A stretch of DNA of 64,000 nucleotides, from NCBI GenBank assembly GCA_048320885.1, contig JBLWFJ010000001.1, positions 1,477,642-1,541,641 on the forward strand, read 5' to 3'. The translations under genes and the position numbers were made by a program. The first letter of the stretch is position 1. Each line of letters begins with the position of its first letter. The notes under the pieces are model-generated. The model made no database searches. It worked only from the letters and a program-made list of their open reading frames with translations, and was not told the origin of the DNA. This DNA is from Nannocystaceae bacterium ST9 (lineage in GTDB: Bacteria > Myxococcota_A > Polyangia > Nannocystales > Nannocystaceae). Shown here piece after piece: positions 2,577-53,214 of the stretch.

Positions 2577-2579
2577 GTC

Positions 2580-3827: not shown

Positions 3828-3837
3828 TCGGATCTCG

Positions 3838-3962
3838 TCAAACTTGCGAGACCCTTGGGAAGCGCTTGCGAAGACGAGGCCCCGCGAGCCTGGATGGCCC
3901 CCGAGCGAAGAATGAATGAGCGAGCGAACGCGAAGCGAACAGACGCGAAGCGCTTGCGAGGA
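3838..3962 (-). repeat. GC-rich interspersed repeat (REP/MITE-like family), inverted orientation
   Basis: Its reverse complement matches the 'cctcctcgcaagcgcttcgcg..ttcgcttcgcgttcgctcgctcattc' core seen at 6330-6400 and 53270-53330. Confidence 0.7.
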
Positions 3963-3965
3963 GGG

Positions 3966-4023
3966 GAGCTGGCCACGCCCGCGCCCAGGCTGCCCTTCGA
4001 TCACGGCGAGTATCGCTTGGTCG
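3966..4023. repeat. 58-bp direct repeat, copy 2 (encodes ELATPAPRLPFDHGEYRLV, a duplicate of the radical SAM C-terminus)
   Basis: Near-identical to 2441..2498. Together the copies flank the HExxH gene plus a REP-like element. Confidence 0.8.
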
Positions 4024-4096
4024 GTGCGACGACGGGTCGCACGACGAACTGACGCAGGGGACACGACGCTCGGGCTCGCGTGTTAGTAGGGCCGCG

Positions 4097-5038: not shown

Positions 5039-5039
5039 C

Positions 5040-6200
5040 GTGGATCGGCTCGCGTCGCTCATCGCCCTGCTCTCCACGCTCGTGGCCTGCGAGTCGCCCG
5101 AACCGGACGACCCGAGCGAGGTCGACGACGCGGCCCTCCGCGAGCTGCTCGGCGTCCCCGACCACTTCGTGACGCCGGCGATCCCGGCCGGCAACCCGCC
5201 GACGGCCGAGAAGATCGAGCTCGGCCGCCGGCTCTTCCACGACCGCCGGCTCTCGGGCAACCAGACCCAGTCGTGCGCCGACTGTCACCTGCAGGAGCTG
5301 GCGTTCAGCGACGGCCTGACGACCCCGACCGGATCGACCGGCACGCTGCTCGAGCGCAACAGCCAAGGCCTCGCCAACGTCGCGTACCTGCCCTCGCTGA
5401 CCTGGGCGAGCGACGGGCTGCTCGAGCTCGAGCAGCAGATCCACGTGCCGCTGACCGCCGACGCGCCAATCGAGCTCGGCGTGACCGACGGCATCCGCGA
5501 CGAGGTGCTCGCGCGCTTCGAGGACGACCCGGAGTACGCGGCGATGTTCGCCGCCGCGTTCCCGGACCTCGCGGGCGAGATCACGCTCGATCACGTCGTG
5601 TTCGCGCTGGCCAGCTTCTGTCGCACCTTGATCAGCGGCGCGAGCCCCTACGATCGCTTCTTGGCCGGCGACGAAGCGGCGCTGACCGAAGAGCAGCGGC
5701 TCGGCATGAGCCTGTTCAACGGCGAGCGCTTCGAGTGCTTCCACTGCCATGGCGGCATCAACTTCACCGCCGCCTACCGCGACGCGCGGCACGATCCTGC
5801 GGACCCGCGCCTGGTGTTCTTCAACAACGGCCTCTACGACGTCGACGGCGAAGGCAGCTACCCGGCCCACGATCAGGGCCTCTACGAGCTGACCTTCGAC
5901 CCCGACCACCGCGGCCTCTTTCGCCCGCCGAGCCTGCGCAACGTCGCGCTCACCGCCCCCTACATGCACGACGGCAGCATCGCGACCCTGCGCGAGGTCG
6001 TCGAGCACTACGCCGCAGGCGGCCGACTCATCACCGAAGGCCCCAACGCCGGCGACGGTCGAGTCAGCCCGCTCAAGTCGGGCCTGGTGCGCAGCTTCGA
6101 AGCGAGCGACGAAGAGATCGACGCCGTCGTCGCCTTCCTCGAAGCGCTCACCGACGAGTCGTTCGTGACCAACCCCGCGCTCGCCGACCCCTTCGAGTGA
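5040..6200 (+). CDS. di-heme cytochrome c peroxidase-family enzyme (MbnH-like, MXAN_0977-type)
   Basis: Two CxxCH motifs (CADCH, CFHCHGG) with spacing typical of the CCP/MauG fold. N-terminal signal/lipobox. Confidence 0.8.
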   Translation: MDRLASLIALLSTLVACESPEPDDPSEVDDAALRELLGVPDHFVTPAIPAGNPPTAEKIELGRRLFHDRRLSGNQTQSCADCHLQELAFSDGLTTPTGSTGTLLERNSQGLANVAYLPSLTWASDGLLELEQQIHVPLTADAPIELGVTDGIRDEVLARFEDDPEYAAMFAAAFPDLAGEITLDHVVFALASFCRTLISGASPYDRFLAGDEAALTEEQRLGMSLFNGERFECFHCHGGINFTAAYRDARHDPADPRLVFFNNGLYDVDGEGSYPAHDQGLYELTFDPDHRGLFRPPSLRNVALTAPYMHDGSIATLREVVEHYAAGGRLITEGPNAGDGRVSPLKSGLVRSFEASDEEIDAVVAFLEALTDESFVTNPALADPFE

Positions 6201-6202
6201 GG

Positions 6203-6580
6203 GGGGTCTGGTTTGATGGAGGGCGTTCCGCCGCCCTCCCCCGTGCCGAGCAAGCTCGTCACGGGTCCCCCTCCTCTGGTTTTTCTGGAGGCCCTTCCGC
6301 GGGCCTCCCCCGTGCCGGCGGAGCCGTCACGGGTCCCCCTCCTCGCAAGCGCTTCGCGCCTGTTCGCTTCGCGTTCGCTCGCTCATTCCTTTGCTCGGAG
6401 GTGAGCCAGGCATCGCATTCGCTCGCTCATTGCTTTGCTCGGAGGTGAGCCAGGCATCGAGCCTGGTCGCTTCGCGCTCGCTCATTCCTTGCTCGGAGGT
6501 GAGCCAGGCTTCGGGCTTGGTCGCTTCGCGTTCGCTCGCTCGGCGCGATCGCGTTCGCTCGCTCAGTGGAAGATCTCGTG
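6203..6580. repeat. composite GC-rich repeat block: two tandem hairpin units (ggaggSc-ttcc-gScgccctcc ...gtcacgggtccccctcctc) plus a ~40-nt unit x3 (cgctcgctcattcctttgctcggaggtgagccaggcatc)
   Basis: Direct inspection of the sequence. Shares a core with the repeats at 3838-3962, 33640-33990 and 53218-53420. Confidence 0.8.
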
Positions 6581-7678
6581 GCCGAGGCGCTCGAGTTCGG
6601 CGAGGGTGTCGGGGGGATCGACGTGGCGTGGGGCGGTCCAGATTCGCAGGCCTGGGCGGCTGGTCGCGATCGCGTCGATCGAGCGGCGGGTGCGGTGGCC
6701 GAGCTCGTGGATGCCGGCGTAGGTGGTGCACAGGCGATCGACGACGGCCCGGGCGGCCTCGCTCTCGCCGAGCTGGGCGAACACGGCTCGCTCGATTCGC
6801 TCGCGCGCCGGTGGGTCGGGCAGCTCGGCGTCGGTCCGGTTGAGCAGCACGGCGTCGATCCGCAGGCCGTAGGCGGCGAGCTGGTCGAGGAACTCGCGGG
6901 CCTCGCGAGCGGAGAAGGGTGAGGCGGTGGTCACCAGCAGCACGCCGGTCGCGGGGCTGCGCAGCAGTCGTTCGAAGTCGCCGCCGCGACGGTGGAACTC
7001 GCCGAGCACCTCGGCGAACTCGCGCAGGAAGGCGCCGAGGTCCCCGATGAAGTCGCCGCCGCCGATCTGCCGGAGCGTCTTGCCGAGCACCGAGCCGCCG
7101 AGCCCGAGGATCTTGGCGCCGACCCGGCCGGTCCCGGCCAGCAGGCGCGCGCCGGGGTTGTCGATCAGCTCGCGGACCTGCTTGGGCGCGTCGAGGAAGT
7201 CGATCGCGTTGGCGGTCGGCGGGGTGTCGAGGACGATCAGGTCGTGCTCGCCGGCGTCGTGGAGCATCTGAACGCGGGCCATCGCGGCGAACTCGAGCGC
7301 ACCCGAGAGCCGCTGGGCGGTCGCGCGATAGATCCGACTGGCGAGGATCTTGTCGGCGCTGGCCGGGTTGCTCGCGCAGGTGCGGACGATCGTGTCGAAC
7401 ACCTTGGCGCCGTCGAGCACGAGCGCGTCGAGGTGGCCGCCCTCGCGCCGGACCGGGACCAGCTCGCCGGTTCGTCCGCGCGCGTCGAGTCCGAGCGCCT
7501 GGGCGAGTCGGCGCGAGGGATCGATGGTCACGACCGCGACCTTGCGACCCTGGCTCGCGGCGTAGAGCCCGAGCGCGGCGGCGCTGGTGGTCTTGCCGAC
7601 GCCACCGGGGCCCACGCACAAGACCAGCTCGCGGCCGGGGAAGGGCAGGGAGGATCCTGTGGACGGCCTAAGGGGCAT
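6563..7678 (-). CDS. ArsA/GET3-family anion-transporting ATPase (SIMIBI P-loop)
   Basis: Deviant Walker A GPGGVGKTT. Start placed at the internal Met (MPLRP). The longer ORF reaching 7714 would overlap the divergent biotinyl-protein gene. Confidence 0.7.
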   Translation of the reverse strand: MPLRPSTGSSLPFPGRELVLCVGPGGVGKTTSAAALGLYAASQGRKVAVVTIDPSRRLAQALGLDARGRTGELVPVRREGGHLDALVLDGAKVFDTIVRTCASNPASADKILASRIYRATAQRLSGALEFAAMARVQMLHDAGEHDLIVLDTPPTANAIDFLDAPKQVRELIDNPGARLLAGTGRVGAKILGLGGSVLGKTLRQIGGGDFIGDLGAFLREFAEVLGEFHRRGGDFERLLRSPATGVLLVTTASPFSAREAREFLDQLAAYGLRIDAVLLNRTDAELPDPPARERIERAVFAQLGESEAARAVVDRLCTTYAGIHELGHRTRRSIDAIATSRPGLRIWTAPRHVDPPDTLAELERLGHEIFH

Positions 7679-7697
7679 GCAATAACCTCCCGGCGCG

Positions 7698-8252
7698 ATG
7701 GCGGCCGAATCCAACCCCAGCGGCTATCGGATCCGCGTCGGCGAGCGCGAACATCGAGTCGAGATCCTCGCTGCGAGCGAGGGCCAGCCGCTGCGCGTGC
7801 GGGTCGACGGCCACGAGTTCGAGGTCGCGAACGCGGGCGTGCACGCGCTGCGCGTGGCCCCGCAGTCCGGCGAGGATCGTCGGCAGCTCGAGGTCACGCT
7901 CGCCAGCGATGGCGGCCGCGCGAGCGAGGCCTGGCTGTCCGGCACGCGGGCCAAGCTCGCGGTCCAGACCGAGCGCGAGGCTCGGCTCGCGGCCGCGCTC
8001 GGCAAGTCCTCGGCCGGTCACGGCAGCGGCGAGCTGCTCGCCCCGATGCCCGGCCGCGTGGTCAAGGTCGGCATCGCGCTCGGCGATCGCGTCGAGCGAG
8101 GCGCACCGATCATGATCGTCGAGGCCATGAAGATGGAGAACGAGCTGCAGGCCCCGATCAGCGGGATCGTGCGCAGCATCGCCGTGCAGGCCGGCGCCGC
8201 GGTCGATGCCAACCAGGTGCTCTGCGTGATCGAGCCCGAGCCGGCCGCTTGA
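7698..8252 (+). CDS. biotin/lipoyl attachment domain protein (BCCP-like)
   Basis: C-terminal biotinyl-domain consensus: IMIVEAMKMENELQAP...VLCVIEP. Confidence 0.65.
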   Translation: MAAESNPSGYRIRVGEREHRVEILAASEGQPLRVRVDGHEFEVANAGVHALRVAPQSGEDRRQLEVTLASDGGRASEAWLSGTRAKLAVQTEREARLAAALGKSSAGHGSGELLAPMPGRVVKVGIALGDRVERGAPIMIVEAMKMENELQAPISGIVRSIAVQAGAAVDANQVLCVIEPEPAA

Positions 8253-8259
8253 GCGCCGC

Positions 8260-9228
8260 TCAACCATCGGCCACGCTCCCGGGCTCGCGCCCACCCTCGA
8301 TCGCGGCGAGCAGCTCGGCCACGCGATCGAGCCCGTCGACACCCCAGGGCCACCAGGGCACGGTCAGCAGATCGGACCCGTCGCTCGGGTGGCGGCCGAG
8401 CCAGTCGGCGACGACCTGGGCTTGATCGTCGCCGCGCTGCCCGACCCGCGCGACCGCGGCGAACATGCGCGCGAGCGATCCGTCCTCGTCGAGCTCGCTC
8501 GCGGGCGGCTCGAGCGAGACGAACTCGCGCGGCCACAGCTTGTTGACCACGCGCGCGCCCACGCTCAGGCCGACCTCGACGCGCAGCGCCTCGGCCAGCT
8601 CGGCGAGCTCGGTCAGCGGCCAGATCTCGGGCAGCCCGACCAGCACCGCCTGACTGATCGCCGCGTCGCCGAGCGCCGCGCTGATCGCCGCCGCCTCGCG
8701 AGCGAGCGGACCTTCGGCCACGGTCTCGACGATCGCCCGCGGCACGCCGAGCACCAGCCGCAGGTGACCCGAGGCCGGACCGTCGAACACGACGACGTCG
8801 TGGCTGCGCGCACGCACGGCCTCGTGCCAGACCTTGCCGAGCACCGCGAAGTCGTCGAACCCGGGGATCGCCCGCAGCAGCCGCCGCACGACCTTGTTTC
8901 CAAACACCGCGTGCGAGAGCCGGTGGCTGTGGGTGACCAGCGCGCCGTACTCCTCGGCGCAGGTGGCCGGGACCAGCCGCTGGATCGAGAGACCGGGGGC
9001 GACCTCGACCGGCACGTCGGGCAAGCGCTCGCCGCCGAGCATCCACGCCAATCGATCGTCGTGGCCCGTGGTCGCGATCAGCACGCGTCGGCCTCGAGCC
9101 GCCAGCGCCATCCCGAGCAGCGCCGCCACGGTGGTTCGTCCGACCCCGCCCTTGCCGCTGACGATCAGCAAGCGACGAGCGCCGAGCTGCTCGAAGAGCT
9201 CGGCAGGCGGGCGTGGCTGCTCCGGCAC
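8260..9228 (-). CDS. ArsA-family ATPase (second copy)
   Basis: Walker A GKGGVGRTT. Same family as 6563..7678. Confidence 0.7.
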   Translation of the reverse strand: MPEQPRPPAELFEQLGARRLLIVSGKGGVGRTTVAALLGMALAARGRRVLIATTGHDDRLAWMLGGERLPDVPVEVAPGLSIQRLVPATCAEEYGALVTHSHRLSHAVFGNKVVRRLLRAIPGFDDFAVLGKVWHEAVRARSHDVVVFDGPASGHLRLVLGVPRAIVETVAEGPLAREAAAISAALGDAAISQAVLVGLPEIWPLTELAELAEALRVEVGLSVGARVVNKLWPREFVSLEPPASELDEDGSLARMFAAVARVGQRGDDQAQVVADWLGRHPSDGSDLLTVPWWPWGVDGLDRVAELLAAIEGGREPGSVADG

Positions 9229-9436
9229 CGGGCGGAAGGTGGCACAGCCGGAGTGAGCGAACCAGGGCGAAGCGCGAGGCGAGGGCAGCCGACGACTTGC
9301 CGAGCTCCGCTCGCCGACTCACCCTGCCGGTCGGGCCTTGACCGACGAGAGGGGCTTGCACGATCGTGCTCGTCCGCTCGCGCTCCCGTCGAGGAGCTCG
9401 CGTCGAGCGACGCGCCCATGGCGCCCAGGAGACACC

Positions 9437-18858: not shown

Positions 18859-19731
18859 TCAAGGAGCCAACGAAGGACAACCCAAACGCACGCTCATCCA
18901 GTACGTCCCCGCGGGGAACATCACATTACGCTCTCCCGCACAAAAAGCTCGCAAGGCTTCGGCATAGCAATTTCGCCATTCACGATACGCAAGAATCGCC
19001 AAGGTTCGAACATGGGCACACGTCGACGCAAACCTGGGTCGAACATGCAATGCCTGGCGCTCCCGCGGCGGCGCGTCGTTCCAGTGCTGCGCGAAGACCT
19101 TTCGCATGCCGATCACGGGCGTCTCGATGGCGACGTCCTCGGCCTCGCGCACTCGATCAGCAACCGCTCGCTGGAGCATTTCATCGTCGAGAGAGGCGTA
19201 GATTTCCGGCCGAGTCAACACGAGCGTGGCCCGAGCTGGCATGGACTCGCTGAAGAAGACACGGGGTCGTTCGATCACTCGGCGTGTTCCGTACGCCATG
19301 CCCATCGACGTCGAGCCCTCCCAATGCCGGGCCCGGGATACCAGTCGAGCGGCGACCGGGTTGGCGTGAACGTAGGCGAGACGCTGAAAGATGGAATCTT
19401 CGTCCAACAACTCGACCCCATTGAATGGCTCTGGATCCCAGAAGCTGCCGCTCCGCCCGAGCAATTCGTTCATGGCGCGTGCGACCATGGCGTTGAGATA
19501 TTGTGCGAAGTCCGAGATCTTGCCGAGCGGATCGGTGACGACCAGGTGGTAGTGGTTGCTCATCACGACGAACGCGTGGAGCTTCAACCCGAACGACGCA
19601 CACGCGAGAGCGAGTACATATTCGAAGATCTGTCGGACCGCAGGGTCGGGTCGGAGAAAGAACCGCTGCTCCGAGCATCGACGGGTCACGAGATAAGTCG
19701 GACCGGGGAGAACTCGCCGTGGTTGGGTCAC
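18859..19731 (-). mobile_element. IS200-like / HuH (Y1) transposase-family protein (possible REP-associated tyrosine transposase)
   Basis: SNHYHLVV HuH-like motif and a downstream conserved Tyr region. The gene lies in a lower-GC patch (18650-19800) flanked by AT-rich DNA. Confidence 0.55.
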
Positions 19732-19865
19732 GTGGAGTCATCGGCCGCTCCTCGTCGTCATTGCAGATATTTTACCATATCGAAACAGTGTCATCCAGCA
19801 CACGACCAGCCGCCGCCCCAATCCAGGACTCTCGGTCCGGAGAGGGCTGCGGTACCGTCTCCGAG

Positions 19866-22800
19866 GTGTCCGCTCCGGACCGCGTCCTGCAAGTGCTCCC
19901 CACGCGCGAGCGGGTCGCCGAGCTCCTCCGCGCCCGCGTCCGCCAGCGAGGTGCCGCCCTCGCCCTCGGCCTCATCGACCTGCGCAGCCTCGAAGACCGG
20001 CTCCTGCGCGCCAGCGGCATGCAAGTCGTCGGCGCCACCGAGGCTCGGCTCGCGCTCGGAGCCGTCGCCCCCGAAGCCGCCCGCTCCACCACCCTCGCCG
20101 AGCTCGCCACCCAGCCCGGCTTCGCCGACGCCTTCCTCGAACTCTGGGACGCCCTGCGCCGCGCGGGCATCGAGCGCGACGACTTCGTGCGCCTCGCCGA
20201 GCGGCTCGCCCGAACCAACCCCCGCTCGAGCCCCGGACCGAGCCTCTCGGCCCGCCGCTTCGAAGCGCTCGCCAAGATCGCCGCCGCCTACGAAGACCGC
20301 CTCGCCGCTCGCCAAGTCGTCGACGGAGCGGGCGCTCGCCTGCGCCTCCCGGCCGCGCTGGCCGAGCTGAGCCCGAGCCGGATCCGCGCCCTGCTCGACG
20401 GCGCGAGCGTGGTCGAGTTCGACGGGATCGGCGAGGTCTCGGTCGTCCGCGCCCGCATGCTGCAGGCGCTCGCGCGCGCGGACGTCCGCGTGCGCGTGCT
20501 GGTCCCCGAGGTCCCGCCCAACCTCGCGGCCGCCGAGCTCGGCGTGGCGCTCGAGCTCTCGCGCCGCAACCTGATCGACGAGGCCCCCGACGTCGAGTTG
20601 ATCGCCCGCCCGCTCGCCCGCGCGGGGCTGCTGGCCTTCGTCGCGCCCGGCTCGGCCCGCAGCCTGATCGATCCGCGGATGGCCCAGCGCATCCGCCTGC
20701 TCGACGCCGAAGATCTGCGCGCCGAGCTGCGCGGCGTGTGTGCGGCGATTCGCGATCTCCTGCACGCCGGCGTCGCCCCCCACCGGATCACGCTTGCGAT
20801 CCCTCGCCTGCCCTGGCACCGCACCCGCGTGATCGCGGCGCTCGACTCGGCCGAGATCGCCTGGGACGAGGCCCGCCCGCGCACGCTCGTCCAGCACGCG
20901 GCCCCGCTCCGGCTCGCGCTCGCGCTGATCGAGGCGGCCGAGCGCGGGCTCCCGCGCGAGGAGCTGGCCGCGGTGCTCGAGTCGGCCTACGTGATCAAGC
21001 GCGGCTCCTCGCTGCTGATCCAGGCCCTGCGCGAGGCCGGCTCGCGCGACGATCGAGGCCCGGGCCACCTCGCCCGCCTCCGCCAGCACGCCGAGCGGCT
21101 CGCTCGCGGATCGCCGCGCGAGCAAGACCGTGCGACCAAGCTGCTCGCGCTCGCCGACGACTGGCAGCGCCCCTTCGAACGCCTGAAGCTGCGCGACCAA
21201 GCGACGCTCGCCGATCACCTCGACGATCTGTTCGCGGCCCTGCGCACGCTCGGGGTCCCGCGTCGCTGCCTCAACCTGCCGGGCGTCGGCATGGGGGCTC
21301 GCGAGCGTCGCTTCGAACGTGACGCCGTGCTGGCGCTGGCCCGCGATCGCCAGGCCCTCGAGGCGCTCGAAGTCGCGGGCCACGGGCTGGTCGAGGCCGC
21401 GAAGGCGGTCGGGATCGCCGAGCGAGCGATCGGCCTGACCGAGTTTCGCGGCCACCTCGAGGCCGCGCTCGCGGGGCTGGCCGGACCGCCGCCGAGCGTG
21501 CGGGGCTCCGGCGTGGCGCTGCGCGACCTCGCCGAGTTCGCCGGCTCGACCACCGATCACCTCTTCGTGCTGCACGCGGTCGAGGGCGAGCTGCCCGGGC
21601 CCGGCCGCGCGCTGCCCTTCCTCGACGAAGACGATCGGCTCGCGCTCGATCGCGCCGCCGGCCGGCCCGTGCTCGCCCCGCCCGGCGCCGCCGATGCGGC
21701 CGCGTTCGCGCTCGCCTGCGCAGGCGCGCGCGAGGGCCTGGTGATCAGCTGCCATCGGCAAGACGGCGAAGGTCGCGAGCTGCTGCGCTCGCGCTGGTTC
21801 GTCGCGCTCGCCGACGCGCTGCGATCGACTCGCGAGCTGCCGGCCAGCGTGGTCGCCCCGCTCGCGCTCGCCAGCACGCGCGGCCAGGTGCTCGCGCGGC
21901 TCGGTCTGCAGGCCGCCCAGGAGGCCGAGCTCGACGGCCCCGCGCTCGCGCTGCTCGAGCTCGGCGTGCACACTCGGCCCGAGCTCGCGCGCGCGCTGGC
22001 CTGGATCCGTGCGCGCGCGTCCGATCCTCAGCGCGCGCGCGTCCGACTCGATCCGAGCACGCTGGCGCTGGCCCACCGCCTGCTCGACTTCGACGCGAGC
22101 GGCCAGCGAGCGGCGACGCCCGAGCAGGCCGGGCTGGTCTGGCGCGGCTCCGCGACCGCGCTCGAGCACTACGCGAGCTGCCCCTTTCGCCTGTTCGCCG
22201 ACCGCGTGCTGCGAGTCCGTCCGCGGCCCTCGATCCGCGACGAGCTCGACGCCCGCGAGCAGGGCCAGGTCCGCCACCAAGTCCTCTTCGAAGTCATGCA
22301 GGCGCTGCGCGAAGCCGGGCTCACGCCCTTGCGCGGCGGCGATCAGACCTGGCGAGAGAACGAGCTCGCGCTCGAGGTCTGCGAGGGCGTGCTCGATCGC
22401 TGGCAGGCCCGCGAGCGGACCGGACCGCGCGCGCTGTGGATCCTCCACCGCGATCTGGTCGTCCGCGATCTCCTGCGTCTGCTCGAGGGTGAGCGACGGG
22501 CGGCGATCGAGGCCTGGGAGCCCGAGCAATTCGAGCGCGGCTTCGGCCTGCCCGATCCCGCCGACGCCACCCGGATCGAGGGCGAGCCGCTGGCGATCCC
22601 CAGCCGCGAGGGTCAGCGCCGCTTCGAACTGGTCGGTCGGGTCGATCGGATCGACGCGCGCGGCGAGGGCCGCGAGCGCGAGGGCCTGGTCATCGACTAC
22701 AAATCCGGCCGAGTCGGCGAGCGTCTGCGCTACGACCAGCTCGCGCGCACCCAGCTGCAGCTGCCGCTCTACGCCGCGTGGCTGGCCGCCGTCCGTCCCG

Positions 22801-23207
22801 AGCTCGACCACGCCGACGCCATGTACGTGTCGCTGCGCGACGGCGAGCGATCGAAGGTCTCGATGCTCGACCTCGTGCTCTCGAGCGTCGAGCTCGATGG
22901 CCTGCTCGAGCTCGCCCCGGATCGCCGCGCCGAGCTGCGCGAGCGGGCCCGCGGCGAGGCCAAGCCCGGCGATCCGATCGGCGCCCCGCGGCTGGCCGCC
23001 GGCGCGCTCGATCTGCCCGCGACCGGCCAGCGCAACCTGGCCGACAACGTCTGGGCGCTGCTGACCGGGATCGCCGAGGGTCACTTCGACGTGCGGCCCT
23101 TCGAGGCCGGTCGAACCTGCGCGCTGTGTCCCTTCGGCGTGGTCTGTCGGATCGAGCGTGGCGACGAGCTCGGCGGCGTCGCGGCCGGCGAGGAGCCCGA
23201 GCCATGA
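19866..23207 (+). CDS. addB: AddB-like PD-(D/E)xK nuclease subunit of an AddAB-type helicase-nuclease
   Basis: C-terminal nuclease motif (VIDYKSG) and Fe-S Cys cluster (CALCPFGVVC). Followed by, and overlapping (ATGA), the AddA-like helicase gene. The start is uncertain: the ORF extends to 19719 but its upstream part is AT-rich. Confidence 0.65.
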   Translation: MSAPDRVLQVLPTRERVAELLRARVRQRGAALALGLIDLRSLEDRLLRASGMQVVGATEARLALGAVAPEAARSTTLAELATQPGFADAFLELWDALRRAGIERDDFVRLAERLARTNPRSSPGPSLSARRFEALAKIAAAYEDRLAARQVVDGAGARLRLPAALAELSPSRIRALLDGASVVEFDGIGEVSVVRARMLQALARADVRVRVLVPEVPPNLAAAELGVALELSRRNLIDEAPDVELIARPLARAGLLAFVAPGSARSLIDPRMAQRIRLLDAEDLRAELRGVCAAIRDLLHAGVAPHRITLAIPRLPWHRTRVIAALDSAEIAWDEARPRTLVQHAAPLRLALALIEAAERGLPREELAAVLESAYVIKRGSSLLIQALREAGSRDDRGPGHLARLRQHAERLARGSPREQDRATKLLALADDWQRPFERLKLRDQATLADHLDDLFAALRTLGVPRRCLNLPGVGMGARERRFERDAVLALARDRQALEALEVAGHGLVEAAKAVGIAERAIGLTEFRGHLEAALAGLAGPPPSVRGSGVALRDLAEFAGSTTDHLFVLHAVEGELPGPGRALPFLDEDDRLALDRAAGRPVLAPPGAADAAAFALACAGAREGLVISCHRQDGEGRELLRSRWFVALADALRSTRELPASVVAPLALASTRGQVLARLGLQAAQEAELDGPALALLELGVHTRPELARALAWIRARASDPQRARVRLDPSTLALAHRLLDFDASGQRAATPEQAGLVWRGSATALEHYASCPFRLFADRVLRVRPRPSIRDELDAREQGQVRHQVLFEVMQALREAGLTPLRGGDQTWRENELALEVCEGVLDRWQARERTGPRALWILHRDLVVRDLLRLLEGERRAAIEAWEPEQFERGFGLPDPADATRIEGEPLAIPSREGQRRFELVGRVDRIDARGEGREREGLVIDYKSGRVGERLRYDQLARTQLQLPLYAAWLAAVRPELDHADAMYVSLRDGERSKVSMLDLVLSSVELDGLLELAPDRRAELRERARGEAKPGDPIGAPRLAAGALDLPATGQRNLADNVWALLTGIAEGHFDVRPFEAGRTCALCPFGVVCRIERGDELGGVAAGEEPEP

Positions 23208-26200
23208 GCGAGACCGACGACCAGGGCAGCGCGCTCGGGCTCGAGCTCGACGCCAACTTGGTGCTGGCCGCGGGCGCGGGCGCGGGCAAGACCCACACGC
23301 TGGTCACGGTCGCGCTCGCGCTCTACGTCGGAGCCGGCCGCAGCGGTCGCGCGCCGCTCGAGCCCGCACGGGTGTGGGCGGTGACCTTCACCGAGAAGGC
23401 CGCTCGCGAGCTTCGCCAACGAATCGTCCAGCGCGCTCGCATCTTGGCCGACGACCCCGACGCCATGAATCACGAGCCCGAGCTGGCCGCGCTGCTCGGC
23501 GAGCACGTGCTCCCGGCCGATCGTTGGCGGCGGGTGGTCGAGCAGCTGGCCGGCGCGCCGATCGGCACCTTCCACGCCCTGTGCGGCCAGCTGCTGCGCG
23601 GCTTCGCGGTCGAGGCCGGGATCGATCCCTCGTTCGGTGTACTCGAGGAGAACGCGGCCGACGAGCTGTTCGAGCGGGTGCTCGACGAGGTGCTGCTCGA
23701 CGAGCTCGAGGCCAGCGACGACTCGCACACCCGCGCGGCCGCGCGGGCGCTGGGCAGCCCCGACACGTTGCGCGCGGCGCTGCGACGCCTGCACGCCAAG
23801 CTCGGCGAAGAGGGCCGCGATCCCGACTCGCTGCTGCGCGACGCCCAGGGCCTGCCGCGCGCCGGCTTCGATCGTGCGGCGATCGAGCTCGAGCTGGCCG
23901 CGGCCTGTCGGGTGCTCGCGCGCGCGATCGATCTGCTCGAGCAGTCGCGCGAGGATCGACTGCGCCCGACCACGCGCGCGCTGGCGATCGAGCGCAAGCG
24001 GATCGGCGCGTGCGAGCCCGAGCGGATCGAGCACTGGTACGGCGCGCTGGTCCGGGTCGCGAGTCAGCGGCGCGGCGGCGGCAGCCTGCCCAAGCCGGCC
24101 CGGCGGATCTGGGAGCCCTTCGCCGAGGCCTGGGAGCGCGTGCAAGACGGCGTGGCCGCGCTCGCCGAGCAGCAGCTGGCCACGCGGATCGTCGCGCTGC
24201 TCGATCGGATCGCGCTCGCCTATCGACAGGAGAAGCAGCGCCAGGGCGTGCTCGACTTCGTCGACCTGGTCCGCCGCGCCCACGATCTGCTCCGCGACGA
24301 TCTCGTCGTGCGTCGCCAGGTCAAGCAGCGGATCGGCGCGCTGCTGGTCGACGAGTTCCAAGACACCAACGGCCTGCAGCTCGACCTCGTCCACCTGCTC
24401 GCCGAGGATCGCGGCCGCGAGCGCGAGGTCCCGAACGGCGCGCGGGCCAGCGAGCTGCTGCCGCTCGGCGAGCGGGTGTTCGCGGCGGTCGGCGATCGCA
24501 AGCAGTCGATCTACGAATTCCGCGGCGCCGACGTGGCGCTCTTCCAGCAGCTCGCAGCGCGGGCGCGCGGGCGCGAGGCCGGCCTGCGTCTGCACGCGCT
24601 GCGCCGCAGCTGGCGATCGCGGCCGCGCCTGGTCGAGTTCGGCAACCGGCTCTTCGCTCGCCTGCTGATCAGCGACGACCCCGAGGGCTTCGCGGTCGAC
24701 TGGGTCGACGACGAGGATCGACTCGAGCCGGTCCGCGAAGATCACCCCGCACAAGCCGATCTGCCGGTCGTGCAATTGCTCTGCGGCGATCCGGCCCTCG
24801 ATCTGCGCGAACAGAGGATCCATCAGCCCAAGCTGCTCGCCGAGCACCTCGGCCTGCTGCTCGAGGCTCGCCCGCCGCTCGGGCGCAGCGGGCCCGAGGG
24901 CGAGCCTCGTCCGCTGCGCGGCGCCGACGTGGCGATCCTGTTTCAGTCGCACACCCACGTCGCTCGCTATCGCCGGGCGCTGAGCGATCGCGGGATCGCG
25001 TCGATCGTCGTCGGCGGCCGCGGCTTTCATGGCGCTCGCGAGGTCCGCGAGCTCGCGGCGCTCGCCCAGGCGATCGCCGATCCCCGCGACCGCATGGCCA
25101 GCGCGGCGGTCTGGCGCTCGCCGGTGTGGGGGATCGACGACGCGGCCATGGTCGCGCTCGCGGCCGCCGACGCGCTCGCGCTGTGGACCCACCGCGAAGG
25201 CTGCACCGTCGAGCTCGCGGCTCCGCAGGCCGCCCAGGTCACCCACATGGCTCGGCTGGTCGTGCGCCTGCATCACGAGCTCGATCGCCTGGGCCCCGCT
25301 CGCACGCTCCGCTTCGCCGTCGATCGACTCGGGCTGCGCGAGGTCTTGGCCTGGGACCCGACCGGCGAGCAGCGGATCGCCAACGTCGACAAGCTGCTCG
25401 GGTTGCTCGACTCGCGCGACTACGCCGGGCTCGGAGCGCTGGCCAGCGCCCGCCGGCTGATCGAGCGCGGCGAGGATCCCCGCGATCGCGAGGCCCCGGC
25501 CGAGGTCGCGGCCGCGGCCGATCCCAACGCGGTGCGGATCATGACCGTGCACGCGGCCAAGGGCCTCGAGTTTCCGGTCGTGATCGTGCCCGAGCTGGGC
25601 GCCGAGCCGCGCGGTCAAGACGGGCCCGTGACCTTCGAGCGCGAGCTCGGCCTGGCCGTGGTCAGCCCCGACTTCGTCGGCCGTCGGCGACCGAGCGCGC
25701 ACGCCAAGCAGGTCGCCGAGCGACTCGAGCAGCGGCGCGACGCCGAGAGTCGCCGGCTCTTCTACGTCGCGGCCACGCGCGCGCGCGACCTGTTGATCCT
25801 GCTCGGCGAGGCGCCCGAGAGCCAGGCCAAGCAGGCCAGCGAGACCAGCTGGCGACGCATGCTCGACGCCGTGCTGCCGGACCTCGACGACGTCGTCCAG
25901 CGCGTCGACTACGGGCGGGTGATCTCGATCGAGGGCAAGCCCGGCGAGACCGGGATGGCGTGGCTGCTCGATCGCGTCGCCGCGCTGCGCCGCCAGGCCA
26001 CGCAGACGCCCGAGCCCGAAGCGCTCGTGCCCGAGATCGAACCAGCGTCGGAGCTCGAAGAGTCCACGCCGCCACCCGAGCCCGACCCAGAATCAGAACC
26101 CGAGCTCGACACGCCCGACGAGCTCGAGCGCGCGCTCGCTCGCAGCGAGCCCCTGCACCTGCGCGCGTGCGAGCTCGACATCTCGCTCGCCGGCCTGGCC

Positions 26201-27235
26201 GAGTTCGACAAGTGTCCGCGCCGCTACCTGCTCTCGCACGTGGTCGGGATCGACACGCCCGCGCTCGCCGAGCAGGTCGCGATCCGCGGGCTTCAGCTCT
26301 TGCCTTGGGTCCCGCGTCGGCGCGACGACGACGAGGCCGGCGACCGCCCGCCACCGAGCCTGGCCGAGGCTCGCTCGCGCGGTCGCTTCGTCCACTACCT
26401 GCTCGGTCGGATCGATCTCGATCGGCTCGGCCGCGATCCCGAGCGCGCGCTCGAGGGCTTCGCGGATCAAGACCACATCCCCGACGATCTCTGGCGAGAG
26501 GTCCGCGGCGATCTGCTCCGCTTCACGACCCGACCCTGGATGCGCGAGCTGATCGCCGTGCACCGCGAGGACCCGCGTCGAGTGCTGCGCTCGCTGCCCT
26601 TCGCGCTGGCCCTGCCGGGGATCCACGCCGCCGACGCCCCGACCAGGCCCGACCAGGGCGAGCGCGTGCACCTCGATCTCTTCGCGCCCTTGCAAGCCGA
26701 GCGCGCGCCGATGCCCGAGGGCACGGTGATCGTCCGCGGCCGCATGGACCTGGTCTGGATCGACGATCGCGGCCGGCTCAACCTGGTCGACTGGCAGTAC
26801 GCCAAGGCCCCGGCGCAGCGCGAGGCCGTGCTCGACCCCGAGCAGATCGCCGGCTTTCGTCGGCTCGCGCAAGCCTGGGCGCTGCGCCGGCTCTGGGGCG
26901 AGCAGGTCCCGATCGCCGCGGGGGCGGTGTTCCTGCGTGAAGCCGAGGCCGACCCCGGGCTGGTCGAGCTCGCCGACGATCAATTGATCGCGTTCGAGCA
27001 GCGCCTGCGCACCAGCGCCGGCCGCCTGCTGCGGATCGAGCTGGGCGAGCACACCGACGACTGGATCGAGCCCTGGCCCAAGCTCGATCGGATCGAGGCC
27101 TGCGGCGAGTGCCTGCACATCGGCCGGTGCTGGAAGGGCCAGTACGAGGGCGAGAGCGAGTCGCCGGTGCTGGCCAGCGAGGTCGAGGCGAGCGAGCCGG
27201 TCGATCCGCTCGACCTCGACGACGATCGCCGATGA
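23204..27235 (+). CDS. addA: AddA-like UvrD-family helicase/nuclease
   Basis: Walker A AGAGAGKTH, UvrD motifs, and a C-terminal nuclease with Cys cluster (CGECLHIGRC). Confidence 0.75.
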   Translation: MSETDDQGSALGLELDANLVLAAGAGAGKTHTLVTVALALYVGAGRSGRAPLEPARVWAVTFTEKAARELRQRIVQRARILADDPDAMNHEPELAALLGEHVLPADRWRRVVEQLAGAPIGTFHALCGQLLRGFAVEAGIDPSFGVLEENAADELFERVLDEVLLDELEASDDSHTRAAARALGSPDTLRAALRRLHAKLGEEGRDPDSLLRDAQGLPRAGFDRAAIELELAAACRVLARAIDLLEQSREDRLRPTTRALAIERKRIGACEPERIEHWYGALVRVASQRRGGGSLPKPARRIWEPFAEAWERVQDGVAALAEQQLATRIVALLDRIALAYRQEKQRQGVLDFVDLVRRAHDLLRDDLVVRRQVKQRIGALLVDEFQDTNGLQLDLVHLLAEDRGREREVPNGARASELLPLGERVFAAVGDRKQSIYEFRGADVALFQQLAARARGREAGLRLHALRRSWRSRPRLVEFGNRLFARLLISDDPEGFAVDWVDDEDRLEPVREDHPAQADLPVVQLLCGDPALDLREQRIHQPKLLAEHLGLLLEARPPLGRSGPEGEPRPLRGADVAILFQSHTHVARYRRALSDRGIASIVVGGRGFHGAREVRELAALAQAIADPRDRMASAAVWRSPVWGIDDAAMVALAAADALALWTHREGCTVELAAPQAAQVTHMARLVVRLHHELDRLGPARTLRFAVDRLGLREVLAWDPTGEQRIANVDKLLGLLDSRDYAGLGALASARRLIERGEDPRDREAPAEVAAAADPNAVRIMTVHAAKGLEFPVVIVPELGAEPRGQDGPVTFERELGLAVVSPDFVGRRRPSAHAKQVAERLEQRRDAESRRLFYVAATRARDLLILLGEAPESQAKQASETSWRRMLDAVLPDLDDVVQRVDYGRVISIEGKPGETGMAWLLDRVAALRRQATQTPEPEALVPEIEPASELEESTPPPEPDPESEPELDTPDELERALARSEPLHLRACELDISLAGLAEFDKCPRRYLLSHVVGIDTPALAEQVAIRGLQLLPWVPRRRDDDEAGDRPPPSLAEARSRGRFVHYLLGRIDLDRLGRDPERALEGFADQDHIPDDLWREVRGDLLRFTTRPWMRELIAVHREDPRRVLRSLPFALALPGIHAADAPTRPDQGERVHLDLFAPLQAERAPMPEGTVIVRGRMDLVWIDDRGRLNLVDWQYAKAPAQREAVLDPEQIAGFRRLAQAWALRRLWGEQVPIAAGAVFLREAEADPGLVELADDQLIAFEQRLRTSAGRLLRIELGEHTDDWIEPWPKLDRIEACGECLHIGRCWKGQYEGESESPVLASEVEASEPVDPLDLDDDRR

Positions 27236-47497: not shown

Positions 47498-48349
47498 TCA
47501 GTTGACGCAGGAGATCATGCCGCCGTCGTAGGGGTTCTCCGTGTTCGCGCAGGCCGGATCGCCCGAGCAGCCGCAGAAGCCGTCGGCGGTGCACACGTCA
47601 CCGGCGTTGCCGTCGACGCACTGCTGATCGTCCCCGCAGCCGCACACGCCGGCGTTGCAGACCGAGAAGTGCGGCTCGCCGATCGTGGCGCAGTCGGCAT
47701 CGGTGCCGCAGCCACACACGCCGGTGTTGGTGTCGCAGATCGGATAGGCCGCGCTCGCACAGTCGGCGTCGGCCTGGCAGGGCGAGAAGCAGAAGCCCTC
47801 GTCGTTGCATTCGGCGCCCGCGTTGCCGCAGACGGTCACGGGGTTTCCGTCGATGTCGGGGACCTCGAGCTCCGACCAGCCAGGGATCGTTTCGCACATG
47901 AAGAAGTCGCTCGGCGGAGTGGCACAGGCACCGCCGCCCTCGACCGCCACGCAGACCTGCGCGAGCGCTTCGCACTCGCCACCGCCGGAGGTGCAGGACG
48001 TCGTCCAGCCGCTGAACAGCGCCACGCACTCTTCGTTGCCGGTGCAGCCCTCCGTGGTCTCACCGGTGCAGACGTTGGCTTGGCAGGTCAGGCCGATGTC
48101 CTGACCATCGACCAGGCAGTCCGCGTCGGCGCTGCACTGGTGAACACAAAAGCCACCGTCGCCATCGCCGTCACCAGTAGTGTCGGCCGTGGTGTCGGCC
48201 GTGGTATCGGCCGTCGAGGTCGCGTCGTCGGTGCCGACGTCGTCGTCGGTCGAGGTCGAGGTGGTGTCGGCGTTGCCGTCGTCACTCGGGCAAGCCGCGA
48301 GCGGCAAGATCAACGCGAACGCGAGAAGCAGGGGGGATTGGGTCTTCAT
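47498..48349 (-). CDS. Cys-rich secreted lipoprotein (myxobacterial Cys-rich repeat type)
   Basis: Lipobox LAAC, Thr/Asp-rich linker, multiple CxxxDxDC-type repeats. Confidence 0.5.
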   Translation of the reverse strand: MKTQSPLLLAFALILPLAACPSDDGNADTTSTSTDDDVGTDDATSTADTTADTTADTTGDGDGDGGFCVHQCSADADCLVDGQDIGLTCQANVCTGETTEGCTGNEECVALFSGWTTSCTSGGGECEALAQVCVAVEGGGACATPPSDFFMCETIPGWSELEVPDIDGNPVTVCGNAGAECNDEGFCFSPCQADADCASAAYPICDTNTGVCGCGTDADCATIGEPHFSVCNAGVCGCGDDQQCVDGNAGDVCTADGFCGCSGDPACANTENPYDGGMISCVN

Positions 48350-50390: not shown

Positions 50391-52226
50391 TCAGCTCCGT
50401 CGGCGACGCAGCGGCAGCAGCCCGACCAGCAGGACCAGCCCCGCGAGCGAGCCCCCGCCCTTGCCCCCGCCCGCGCTCGAACACGAGCAGCCCGACTCGC
50501 CGCCCTCGTCGACGCCGGCACTGGTCTCGCCGACTTCGTCGTCGCCGGTCGCGTCGCTCGTGGAGTCGCCGGTGTCGCTCGTCTCGCCTCCGCTCGAGTC
50601 GGTGCCCGTGTCTTCGTCGCCGATCAGCCCGGTCAGCGGCACGCTGGCCGACGCCTCGGCGAGCACGATCGGCACGCTGCCGCCGATCGCATCGAAGGCG
50701 TCGGCGACATGCGTGCCGGCGTCGTTGGTCTGGTTGGTCTCGGCCAGGAACTCGAGGTAGCTCGGCGTGTTGATCCAGTAGAGCAGCCGGACCTCCAGCT
50801 CGAGCGTGTCGGGCTGGCCCGGGGTCTGATCGGCGAGCTCGACCGCCGCAAAGGCGTAGTCGATCGCGTCGACGTTGGGCCAGGTGTCGTCGGGCAGCAG
50901 CGCGTAGCGATCGCCGACCGGATCGGTCTCGGGGTTCGCGGTCAGGCCCTTGGGCGGGAGCCGGTTGTCGACCACCCAGTGATCGTTGAGCAGCAGGTGC
51001 AGGCTGGCCCCGTCCGACCAGCGCTCGGCGATCGCCTCGTAGCGACGGACCTGCGGATCGTCGGCGATCGTCCCGGCGGCTTGGTCCCACAGACCCGAGC
51101 TCCAGACCAGCTCGCCCTGGTAGCGGGCGCTGACCTCGATCCACATCACGCGGCCCTCGCTGTAGCCGGTCGGCAGCTTGTGTCCGGTCTCGTTGGTGAC
51201 CGTGACCGGCAGGCTGACCAAGCCCTCGCCGAGATCGATCGCGTCCGGGAACGCGACCTCGAGCGTGGCCGCGGTCTCGACGAAGGCCTCGGCCCAGCCG
51301 ATCGACTCGTCGAAGCGCCAGTCGGGCACCTCGCCGGTGCCCGCGTCGCCGTAGAGCGACTTGGCGACCTGCATGCCGCCGACGTTGGCCCCGACCAGCA
51401 CGTGCCGACGCCCGCCGCTCGCGTGCGGGGCCCCGGCGAACATGTTGCAGCCGAGCGTCGGGCTGGTGATCGCCGGCATGTGACAGTCCTGGCAGCTGCG
51501 CTGATCGGGCCCGGGCTCGGCGAAGTCGCTGGCCAACCACTCGCTGTAGGTGCGCTGCTCGTTGAAGAGCACGCCCATCCCGACCCCGCGATCGTCGACG
51601 CGCTCGCGCGGCGTGCTGACGTCGTGACAGGTCCCGCACATCCGCGAGCTGGGCAGGAACTCGAGATCCTGCGCCCAAGGATGCTGTGGTTCGGGCCCGA
51701 ACTCCTCGTAGGCCCAGGGGCCGCGGCGGGGGATCAGCTCGCCGACCGGTGCATCGCCGAGCACGAACTGCGCGTTGCCGGCCGGCGTCTCGCCGTCGTC
51801 GATCATCCGATGGCAGAAGTCGCACTCGATCCCGGCCCGCTGATCTTCGCTCAGCTGATCGAGCGCGATCACGTCGGCCTGACCGTCGAGGAACGCACGC
51901 GGCGAATGGCAGCGCACGCACTCCTCGGTCTCGCCGGGGACGGCCTGATCCTGGCTGGCGATCGCGACTCCGGCCCAGAACACCGGATCGCGGGCGCTGT
52001 TGCTCATCATCGATCCCTGCCAGGCCCAGGGCTCGACGCTGCCTCCGTTGGCGAGCTCGACCTCGTTGGTGAGGAAGTCGTGGCAGGTCGAACATGTCTG
52101 CGCCGGCTCGAGTGCCTGCTCGAGTTCACCGGGCTGGGTCGGCGTGGCCTCGACTCGACGCCCCCCGACGAGCAGGCCGAGCGGGAGGGTCAGGACCACC
52201 AAACCGATCGCAGAGCGCCGATGCAT
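50391..52226 (-). CDS. multiheme (5x CxxCH) c-type cytochrome with MYXO-CTERM-like C-terminal sorting tail
   Basis: Heme motifs CSTCH, CVRCH, CDFCH, CGTCH, CQDCH. Signal peptide. C-terminus GCSCSS-Gly-rich-hydrophobic-RRRRS. Confidence 0.7.
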   Translation of the reverse strand: MHRRSAIGLVVLTLPLGLLVGGRRVEATPTQPGELEQALEPAQTCSTCHDFLTNEVELANGGSVEPWAWQGSMMSNSARDPVFWAGVAIASQDQAVPGETEECVRCHSPRAFLDGQADVIALDQLSEDQRAGIECDFCHRMIDDGETPAGNAQFVLGDAPVGELIPRRGPWAYEEFGPEPQHPWAQDLEFLPSSRMCGTCHDVSTPRERVDDRGVGMGVLFNEQRTYSEWLASDFAEPGPDQRSCQDCHMPAITSPTLGCNMFAGAPHASGGRRHVLVGANVGGMQVAKSLYGDAGTGEVPDWRFDESIGWAEAFVETAATLEVAFPDAIDLGEGLVSLPVTVTNETGHKLPTGYSEGRVMWIEVSARYQGELVWSSGLWDQAAGTIADDPQVRRYEAIAERWSDGASLHLLLNDHWVVDNRLPPKGLTANPETDPVGDRYALLPDDTWPNVDAIDYAFAAVELADQTPGQPDTLELEVRLLYWINTPSYLEFLAETNQTNDAGTHVADAFDAIGGSVPIVLAEASASVPLTGLIGDEDTGTDSSGGETSDTGDSTSDATGDDEVGETSAGVDEGGESGCSCSSAGGGKGGGSLAGLVLLVGLLPLRRRRS

Positions 52227-52359
52227 GGCCGCGATGGTACGAGAGTCGGGAGCAGTTCGATTTGTGAGTTTTTGCGGTCGAGGCGAGTGATCGGCCCGAT
52301 GGCGGCGGTCGTCGAGCACGCGCGCGCATGATATGGTGCGCCCGGACATGCCCCCAGTC

Positions 52360-53214
52360 ATGCGCACGACTTCTTCGCGGTTGTTTGCTGGTTTGGTCGC
52401 GACGGCGTTGGTGCTCGGCCCCGTTCAGGTGGTCCACGCCGAGCCGCCGGGTGACACGGTCGACGAGCTGTTTCCCTACGGCCAAGAGAAGTTCGACGCC
52501 GAGGAATTCGGCGAGGCCGGCGACGCCTGGGCCAAGGCCGTTCGACTCCTGCCCGAAGACAAGAAGAACGCCGCGACCCGGCAGACGCTGGTCAACCTCG
52601 CGCTCGACGCCTACCTGCGCGCCTACAAGTCCAAGGACGATCGCACCTTCGTCGACGCGGCCAAGACCCTGCTCGACGACTACGAAAAGTCGCTGCAAGA
52701 CGCCCACGGCACGGTCGAGCTGACGCCCGAAGTCGCCGACGCCAAGCAGAAGATCGACGACGCGCTCGCCGACATCAAAGCCAAGGAAGAAGAGGCCGCG
52801 CGCCTCGCCGCCGAGGCCAACAAGGAGCCCGAGCCCGAACCCGAGCCCGAGCCCGAGCCCGACAAGAAGAAGCCCGGCACCGGCCTGATCATCGGCGGTG
52901 GCGTGCTGGTGGGTTTGGGCGTGGGCGGTGCCGGCCTGCTCATCGGTGGCGTGGTCGGTGCGGCGTCGGCCCAGAAGGCCAACGACAGCGCCGCGGACGA
53001 TTCGCCCGAGAAGGCGGCGGCGCAGAAGAAGGGCGAGACGATGAACGCCCTCGAGGTCGCCGGCGCGGTGACCGGGGCCGTGTTCCTCGGAGCTGGCATC
53101 GCGCTCTTGGTGATCGGGCTCAAGAAGAACAAGGCGGCCGCCAAGGGCAACGCGATGGTCGTTCCGACCTTCGGGCCCGGCTATGCCGGCATCGGCTTCA
53201 CGGGCCGGTTCTAG
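52360..53214 (+). CDS. hypothetical secreted/membrane protein with an (EP)n linker and Gly-rich TM segments
   Basis: Signal peptide, helical N-domain, EPEPEPEPEP linker, two Gly-rich hydrophobic helices. Confidence 0.4.
   Translation: MRTTSSRLFAGLVATALVLGPVQVVHAEPPGDTVDELFPYGQEKFDAEEFGEAGDAWAKAVRLLPEDKKNAATRQTLVNLALDAYLRAYKSKDDRTFVDAAKTLLDDYEKSLQDAHGTVELTPEVADAKQKIDDALADIKAKEEEAARLAAEANKEPEPEPEPEPEPDKKKPGTGLIIGGGVLVGLGVGGAGLLIGGVVGAASAQKANDSAADDSPEKAAAQKKGETMNALEVAGAVTGAVFLGAGIALLVIGLKKNKAAAKGNAMVVPTFGPGYAGIGFTGRF

Follow-up and report, generated by a model that had tools for sequence, protein, structure and literature searches.

Proteins that end in a MYXO-CTERM sorting domain are processed by the myxosortase MrtX, an Rce1-like CPBP glutamic intramembrane endopeptidase, and not by an exosortase or archaeosortase; cleavage needs a conserved Cys, probably after lipidation of that residue by an enzyme that is not known, and surface localisation of the cargo depends on the type II secretion machinery (T2SS) (PMC11980579; bioRxiv 10.1101/2023.06.07.544157). 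Lipidation, C-terminal cleavage and T2SS-dependent exposure have been demonstrated for TraA and a few Myxococcus xanthus cargos only (PMC11980579). True positives of TIGR03901, the hidden Markov model (HMM) for this domain, are confined to Myxococcota and Bradymonadales, and every known genus of Myxococcota is reported to have an mrtX orthologue; Haft reported one myxosortase each in 16 genomes, Plesiocystis pacifica among them, and no genome having the signal without the enzyme. While the 35 MYXO-CTERM cargos of M. xanthus are described as mostly adhesins and hydrolases, the passenger considered here is a multiheme cytochrome: a 611-amino-acid (aa) pentaheme c-type cytochrome precursor with a MYXO-CTERM-like tail, encoded in a stretch of 64,000 nucleotides from Nannocystaceae bacterium ST9 (contig JBLWFJ010000001.1) that was analysed as a whole and is called the 64-kb window below. 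In the literature searched, MYXO-CTERM and cytochrome were mentioned together only in a general review, in which cytochrome appeared once, and searches on myxobacterial multiheme cytochromes, extracellular electron transfer and strain ST9 returned nothing relevant.

Several described multiheme cytochromes offer points of comparison with the ST9 protein. The low-potential penta-heme c552 of Thermochromatium tepidum is a 435-residue chain (385 residues in fold libraries) without a sorting tail; its structure (PDB 5ze8) was reportedly described by Chen et al. in 2019, its function being not known. PtdA, which we liken to the ST9 protein by description only, is a reported homologue of c552 that shares this two-domain plan and likewise has no known function; its operon includes a porin and tetra- and deca-heme proteins, whereas the ST9 cytochrome gene is solitary. 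OmcA and MtrC of Shewanella are multiheme cytochromes with a lipid anchor that reach the cell surface by way of the T2SS; they differ from the ST9 protein in having ten hemes, a different fold, an N-terminal lipoprotein anchor and a dependence on the MtrAB conduit. In Geobacter sulfurreducens, MccSep (ExtKL, GSU2937-2936) is a pentaheme selenoprotein of the periplasm that has a heme cap and an immunoglobulin-like (Ig-like) stem (bioRxiv 10.1101/2025.11.18.688581; PDB 9wt8); it reduces polysulfide at its Cys239-ligated heme 2 while Sec325 reaches in from the Ig-like domain (bioRxiv 10.1101/2025.11.18.688581).

The ST9 gene translates as one uninterrupted protein (Table 1), and the best database match, NCBI entry P0001 from a 6.98-Mb contig of Nannocystaceae bacterium ST9, has the same length and start codon and is 100% identical, in agreement with the myxobacterial host that a sequence-only reading of this DNA had implied. 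The same reading had called the product a signal-peptide-bearing pentaheme c-type cytochrome, and this description was borne out by five CxxCH motifs and a Sec-type N-terminus. Three or more CxxCH motifs arose in none of 200,000 residue shuffles of the protein, and two arose in 8 of 200,000. Conservation was followed in the 120 closest database relatives (48-81% identity), in an alignment of 34 diverse homologues and in a distant set of 106 full-length relatives at 31-45% identity; all five motifs were present in 119 of the 120 close homologues. Judged by eye, the N-terminus (MHRRSAIGLVVLTLPLGLLVGGRRVEA, followed by TP) has the n/h/c layout of a Sec signal, with a basic n-region, a hydrophobic core and a VEA/T cleavage motif. 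Ala27 did not vary in the 34-sequence alignment and was conserved in at least 90% of the 120, and Pro29 and Thr30 were almost invariant.

The C-terminus carries the second half of the argument. Its last 35 residues matched TIGR03901.2 at 25.2 bits (curated cut-off 20; E 1.5e-5), with residues 577-610 covering model positions 1-33 of 34, and the order at the extreme C-terminus is GCSC, transmembrane (TM) segment, RRRRS and stop codon. A signal peptide, a C-terminal GCxC/TM/Arg tail, an HMM score above cut-off and a myxobacterial host are features shared with the MYXO-CTERM cargos, of which TraA is the prototype. Both Cys580 and Cys582 were invariant in the 34 aligned homologues and at least 90% conserved among the 120, and the Cys...TM...Arg tail was found by pattern in at least 112 of 120 close homologues, most of the others being truncated or variant. 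The short, divergent HMM itself matched 21 of 34 sampled members at E <= 0.01. An invariant Cys pair next to an acidic linker that is hypervariable in length and sequence is the pattern of a sorting signal, unlike that of a simple anchor, and a 61%-identical orthologue in Plesiocystis pacifica SIR-1 (P0021) has the same kind of tail. On sequence evidence, then, the tail is a bona fide MYXO-CTERM domain, the only one found in the 64-kb window. This was the call of the sequence-only reading, and the HMM check agrees with it; it also matches the existing automatic annotation, since P0001 already carries the NCBI name 'MYXO-CTERM sorting domain-containing protein', and is thus not new for the ST9 protein. 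What the analysis adds is the placement in the c552/MccSep structural class, the absence of the MccSep catalytic residues, and a core that is widespread and repeatedly fused to sorting tags.

A PDB sequence search with the single protein gave nothing significant, and a search with the family profile gave marginal matches only (c552 profile E 0.44); the relationship to c552 was reached through predicted structure. The AF2 model, built on 120 homologues, had a predicted local distance difference test score (pLDDT) of 87.2 and a predicted template modelling score of 0.84. It comprises a helical heme domain (residues ~28-316), a beta-sandwich (~317-535), a disordered linker and a terminal helix. 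In this model, the two-domain architecture is that of T. tepidum c552: a helical five-heme domain and an Ig-like domain, collinear CxxCH motifs, and a loop of the form N..x.H.[LM]PTG...R, which reads 'PHAMPTGAPFR' in c552 and 'GHKLPTGYSEGR' in the ST9 protein. The two also differ. The ST9 cytochrome family has larger insertions in both domains, and a Cys that c552 carries between hemes 4 and 5 ('PLCQTG') is replaced by 'FNEQRTY' in the ST9 protein, with Cys in 0 of 106 distant relatives.

The relationship to MccSep was reached through profile alignment, for which the MccSep sequence was taken from the preprint supplement and matched to PDB 9wt8. Aligned by hhalign across 297 columns, which run from heme 2 to where the Ig-like domain ends, the family profile and MccSep gave 96% probability and E 3e-9. 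Both have five hemes and an Ig-domain loop G-H-x-[IL]-P-x-G directed at the heme domain, with His349 equivalent to MccSep His319 and to the His of c552 'PHAMPTG', and Tyr355 equivalent to MccSep Sec325 and to an Ala in c552. The Sec325 column held Y 96, F 6, W 1, P 1 and M 1 in the 106 distant relatives, and no Cys or Sec. MccSep Cys239 aligned with N222-R225 (NEQR), without a Cys in any of the 106; this alignment may be 1-2 columns off, yet residues 217-233 have no Cys at all. As judged from these alignments, the family is homologous to MccSep yet lacks both of its defining catalytic features. The settings differ as well: MccSep is a periplasmic soluble tetramer, whereas for the ST9 protein a lipid-anchored surface location is predicted.

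The conserved residues of the family point to a protein whose hemes are fully ligated. Across the 106 distant relatives, H275, H349, N345, G348, G354, R359, D420, R422 and E229 were 100% conserved, K350 98%, H182 and M74 each 94%, Y355 91% and H410 84%, and the loop around His349 was the most conserved segment of all. Conservation and alignment suggest Met74, His182, His275, His349 and His410 as candidate distal ligands, so that four hemes would be bis-His and one His/Met. Met74 stands where c552 ('WKGSMHAKS') and MccSep ('SIHARS') have His, by an alignment made by eye in which the MccSep site lies outside the hhalign region. Since five candidate distal ligands are available for five hemes, the protein would be an electron-transfer module with one higher-potential centre and not an enzyme with an open site. 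The lone Cys260, 11 residues past heme 5, was present in 120 of 120 sequences of the Nannocystaceae clade and in 30% of the wider family; a role as heme ligand or catalytic residue was dropped on account of that low conservation, and it may be a clade-specific thiol near heme 5.

This core is widespread. At E <= 1e-3 an exhaustive HMMER search of 1.84 billion cluster representatives recovered 2,360 clusters, of which 224 also reached E <= 1e-30, and species-representative genomes held at least 597 family loci. The clade at 46-66% identity is Nannocystaceae, often with several paralogues per genome, and a tier at 31-38% includes other Myxococcota, Gemmatimonadota, Krumholzibacteriota, Eisenbacteria, Planctomycetota, Acidobacteriota, Lysobacteraceae and Flavobacteriaceae. 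Distant relatives retain the five hemes and the GHKLPTG loop, while their C-terminal ends differ: by pattern, ~47 of the 106 are MYXO-CTERM-like, ~10 have a C-terminal domain like that of the type IX secretion system (T9SS) or FlgD, ~4 are dockerin-like, and the remainder have no recognisable tag. HMM scores agree with the pattern for the T9SS type-A sorting domain in P0235 (39 bits) and P0136 (28 bits; cut-off 23) and for MYXO-CTERM in the distant relative P0145 (25.3 bits; cut-off 20), and a GC-type dockerin in P0263 fell just under its cut-off. One core joined to lineage-specific surface or secretion tags is independent evidence that the family functions outside the periplasm.

With a signal peptide, a MYXO-CTERM HMM match and a Nannocystaceae host, surface display is the expected fate of the protein, much as the sequence-only reading had proposed; its processing enzyme was misnamed there, the archaeosortase/exosortase-like enzyme giving way in the literature to the Rce1-like CPBP protease myxosortase (PMC11980579; bioRxiv 10.1101/2023.06.07.544157). 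By analogy with TraA of M. xanthus, hemes would be attached in the periplasm after Sec export while the MYXO-CTERM domain retains the protein in the inner membrane, and a Cys of GCSC would be lipidated. Myxosortase would then remove the TM helix and the Arg cluster, and the T2SS would carry the protein, now lipid-anchored, to the outer membrane, on whose outer face an acidic flexible stalk of ~40 residues would hold it. At the surface it would be a redox protein, most probably an electron-transfer module with five hemes that are all six-coordinate. Taking the analysis as a whole, we consider it fairly probable that the ST9 protein is a Sec-exported, myxosortase/T2SS-sorted, lipid-anchored surface pentaheme electron-transfer cytochrome.

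Several observations weigh against this interpretation. The 64-kb window contains no myxosortase, T2SS or cytochrome-maturation (Ccm) genes, so that the sorting pathway is assumed for the ST9 genome; indirect support for it comes from the mrtX orthologues reported across the Myxococcota, from the lack of any known genome that has the signal alone, and from P. pacifica SIR-1, which has a myxosortase as well as the 61%-identical orthologue. Pfam and NCBIfam scans of almost all likely window genes gave no match to PF02517 or to a myxosortase model; a hydropathy and EExxxR scan of every open reading frame (ORF) in the window found no myxosortase, the only protein with at least three hydrophobic segments being a 293-aa neighbour of the cytochrome; and none came from searching 1.35 Mb of related loci for the CPBP motif. 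The tail has a Pro in the TM segment and a Lys in the spacer, both of which depart from the published logo, yet the HMM score stays above its cut-off. The heme ligands are proposed from conservation and alignment only. Pfam and NCBIfam scans revealed no porin-cytochrome conduit or other multiheme partner in the window, and the proposal places an outer-surface cytochrome in an aerobe without an obvious electron supply.

Some of these points would fit a tail that stays unprocessed and serves as a plain C-terminal anchor, keeping the cytochrome at the inner membrane on its periplasmic side. Tail-anchored periplasmic cytochromes exist, the Pro in the TM segment is atypical, and the sortase of the ST9 genome is assumed. 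However, the tail scores above the TIGR03901 cut-off, and its Cys pair, which an anchor would not need, is conserved despite the hypervariable linker. Relatives in other phyla exchange the tail for secretion or surface tags and not for TM anchors, and Haft's finding of no genome with the signal and without the enzyme also speaks against a plain anchor, to which we give a very slim chance. A second way of departing from the proposed role would be catalysis. The protein could be an MccSep-like polysulfide or selenite reductase, or another small-molecule multiheme enzyme, with a catalytic heme facing the Ig-domain loop. The homology to MccSep favours such a role, as do weak matches of 30 of 34 family members to the ExtKL model NF040886 (best E 1.6e-9, far under cut-off); the loop that bears Sec325 in MccSep is the family's most conserved segment, and conserved polar K350, Y355, R359, D420 and R422 could line a pocket. 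Yet the ST9 protein itself reaches just 18.3 bits against an NF040886 cut-off of 250, Tyr takes the place of Sec325 (91% Y and 6% F, with Cys and Sec never seen in the 106 relatives) and the Cys239 position lacks a Cys. An enzyme role is less likely because these polysulfide-reductase residues are absent, and no open coordination site is evident with five candidate distal ligands for five hemes; we regard it as highly improbable.

The remaining alternatives concern the partners of the cytochrome. The sequence-only reading had suggested extracellular electron transfer, which in its strongest form would make the protein an MtrC/OmcA-type terminal reductase for dissimilatory transfer to metal oxides or electrodes. 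The predicted surface location is compatible with this, PF22113 (MtrC/MtrF domains II/IV) matched at 30.5 bits (cut-off 30; Cytochrome_C7 and C554 fell just under theirs), and there was a weak match to the OmcA/MtrC model TIGR03507. That match, though, reached 21 bits against a cut-off of 209; the protein has five hemes and not ten, and gave no structural match to OmcA/MtrC. MtrA/MtrB-like or porin-cytochrome genes were absent from the window and none recurred in 80 related loci, and described Nannocystaceae are aerobes. Without a porin-cytochrome or multiheme partner in the window, extracellular electron transfer is kept here as a possibility, and the terminal-reductase role appears very unlikely. 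More can be said for a pairing with a lipoprotein of the GSDH type (soluble pyrroloquinoline quinone (PQQ)-dependent sugar dehydrogenase-like; PF07995), for which the cytochrome would be the electron acceptor in a periplasmic or surface sugar-oxidising pair. All-against-all ORF clustering of the 80 related loci found no universal neighbour of the cytochrome gene; a GSDH-type lipoprotein gene lay within 10 kb of it in 11 of them. It adjoins the cytochrome gene in L012 and L036, lies ~0.5-1 kb away in L026 and L025, and is directly downstream on the same strand in the distant lineages of L039 (Myxococcaceae), L069 (Phycisphaerales) and L042 (Krumholzibacteriia). A GSDH-type gene is present in the window as well; its product has a lipobox and is 64% identical to the L036 neighbour, and with Met74 in place of His, a His/Met heme of higher potential would be fit to take electrons from a dehydrogenase. 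On the other side, the link is seen in only 14% of loci. A distance of 6.9 kb separates the two genes of the window, which are encoded on opposite strands and have UvrD and other housekeeping genes between them. Such genomes carry several GSDH genes, 11 of 80 is an uncorrected count, and the pairing has no biochemical precedent. We consider it unlikely; the association may hint at a redox partner but is too weak a basis for more.

Table 1. Features of the ST9 cytochrome gene and other genes of the 64-kb window (coordinates are window positions).
Feature	Residues	Position	Strand	Remarks
Complete gene, pentaheme c-type cytochrome precursor with MYXO-CTERM tail	1-611	50391..52226	-	stop codon 50391-50393
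Signal peptide MHRRSAIGLVVLTLPLGLLVGGRRVEA	1-27	52146..52226	-	predicted cleavage after Ala27; sequence by eye and conservation
Mainly helical heme-binding domain	28-316	51279..52145	-	AF2 pLDDT mostly >90; matches 5ze8 heme domain
Heme 1 motif CSTCH	45-49	52080..52094	-	100% conserved in 106 distant homologues
Heme 2 motif CVRCH	103-107	51906..51920	-	100% conserved in 106 distant homologues
Heme 3 motif CDFCH	135-139	51810..51824	-	100% conserved in 106 distant homologues
Heme 4 motif CGTCH	197-201	51624..51638	-	100% conserved in 106 distant homologues
Heme 5 motif CQDCH	245-249	51480..51494	-	100% conserved in 106 distant homologues
Lone Cys260	260	51447..51449	-	13 Cys in protein: 10 in CxxCH motifs, Cys260, 2 in tail
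Ig-like beta-sandwich domain	317-535	50622..51278	-	
Family signature loop NETGHKLPTGYSEGR (GHKLPTGY)	345-359	51150..51194	-	most conserved segment of family
Acidic Gly/Asp/Thr/Ser-rich disordered linker, putative flexible stalk	536-576	50499..50621	-	G10 D9 T7 S6 E5; pLDDT <50
MYXO-CTERM sorting domain ESGCSCSSAGGGKGGGSLAGLVLLVGLLPLRRRRS	577-611	50394..50498	-	TIGR03901.2
GCSC signature (Cys580, Cys582), presumed lipidation site		50481..50492	-	cleavage presumed distal to GCSC; role by analogy with TraA (PMC11980579)
Hydrophobic TM segment SLAGLVLLVGLLPL	593-606	50409..50450	-	sequence; AF2 helix 595-607
Predicted cytoplasmic Arg cluster RRRR	607-610	50397..50408	-	R607, R608/R609 >=90% conserved
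293-aa membrane protein		52333..53214	+	divergent from cytochrome gene
Small gene		~49455-49814		convergent with cytochrome gene
283-aa lipoprotein		47498..48349	-	lipobox LAAC
GSDH-type lipoprotein		59099..60598	+	
Radical SAM/SPASM maturase, MbnP and MbnH cluster		1203..6200	+	
Get3/ArsA-fold ATPase		6563..7723	-	
Get3/ArsA-fold ATPase		8260..9318	-	
AddB-like and AddA/RecB-like ORFs		19539..27235	+	window's highest GC (0.74-0.76)
Major Vault Protein homologue		30642..33356	+	904-aa ORF

The GC content of the cytochrome gene at third codon positions is 0.89, like that of other genes in this window of 70% GC, and the closest loci are all from Nannocystaceae or Enhygromyxa. The gene looks monocistronic, and a promoter and terminator scan around it found nothing. 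The divergent 293-aa membrane protein carries a signal or TM segment, an (EP)n repeat and hydrophobic stretches rich in Gly. No family matched it, and its position is the same in the three genome loci that are closest and in the loci of 80%-identical orthologues. Downstream of the cytochrome gene lie the convergent small gene, an outer-membrane-type protein, a Cys-rich lipoprotein, ClpX and trigger factor, and the gene order around the cytochrome is kept in the 80%-identical orthologues. The 283-aa lipoprotein has an acidic Thr/Asp linker and many regularly spaced Cys, with no Pfam or NCBIfam match.

A different arrangement is found in one clade of paralogues, in which an FG-GAP/ASPIC-like protein of ~700 aa is encoded directly upstream of the cytochrome on the same strand in eight loci: L011, L019, L021, L023 (7899-9986), L027, L028, L030 and L035. 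This protein likewise ends in a MYXO-CTERM tail (...GGCSCNTTPRAGLWPWLLFAVPVLRRRRGARA), and the pair looks like a two-cargo operon.

Elsewhere in the window, the only other ORF with any CxxCH motif is the di-heme MbnH homologue. It belongs to a cluster of a radical SAM/SPASM peptide maturase, a 416-aa ORF of unknown kind, an MbnP copper-binding protein and the MbnH di-heme enzyme; MbnP and MbnH scored above cut-off, and the maturase is related, under cut-offs, to nif11-class and GDL-motif maturases. This may be a peptide-modification or copper-related cassette. The genes for the two Get3/ArsA-fold ATPases, best matched by the mycobacterial BagB and BagA models, both under cut-off, flank a biotin-carboxyl-carrier-like gene. 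Two very long overlapping ORFs gave AddB-like and AddA/RecB-like matches, all under cut-off, and a bacterial Major Vault Protein homologue matched Pfam Vault_3 at 39 bits and MVP_shoulder at 35 bits, as well as Vault_4.

The ST9 locus itself points to no specific new mechanism. The cytochrome adds a redox cofactor protein to MYXO-CTERM cargos that have so far been mostly adhesins and hydrolases, and it belongs to a cytochrome family that is both uncharacterised and very large, with at least 597 loci among species-representative genomes and over 2,300 clusters of sequences, a family whose only structural relative in the libraries searched, c552, is without known function and whose only characterised homologue, MccSep, uses residues that the family lacks. 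The same core on three surface or secretion tags across phyla suggests a conserved extracellular redox job, mostly in aerobic bacteria. A bolder and decidedly improbable extension would make the 'GHKLPTGY' pentaheme module a phylum-spanning extracellular redox unit, joined independently to the sorting devices of each lineage (T9SS domains in the FCB group and related phyla, MYXO-CTERM in Myxococcota, dockerin-like domains elsewhere) and working with GSDH-type PQQ dehydrogenase lipoproteins as a surface sugar-oxidising chain. If this were true, the module and GSDH would serve aerobic, polymer-degrading or predatory bacteria, and would be the bacterial equivalent of AA12 dehydrogenase-cytochrome systems in fungi, which supply electrons for the oxidative breakdown of polysaccharides.

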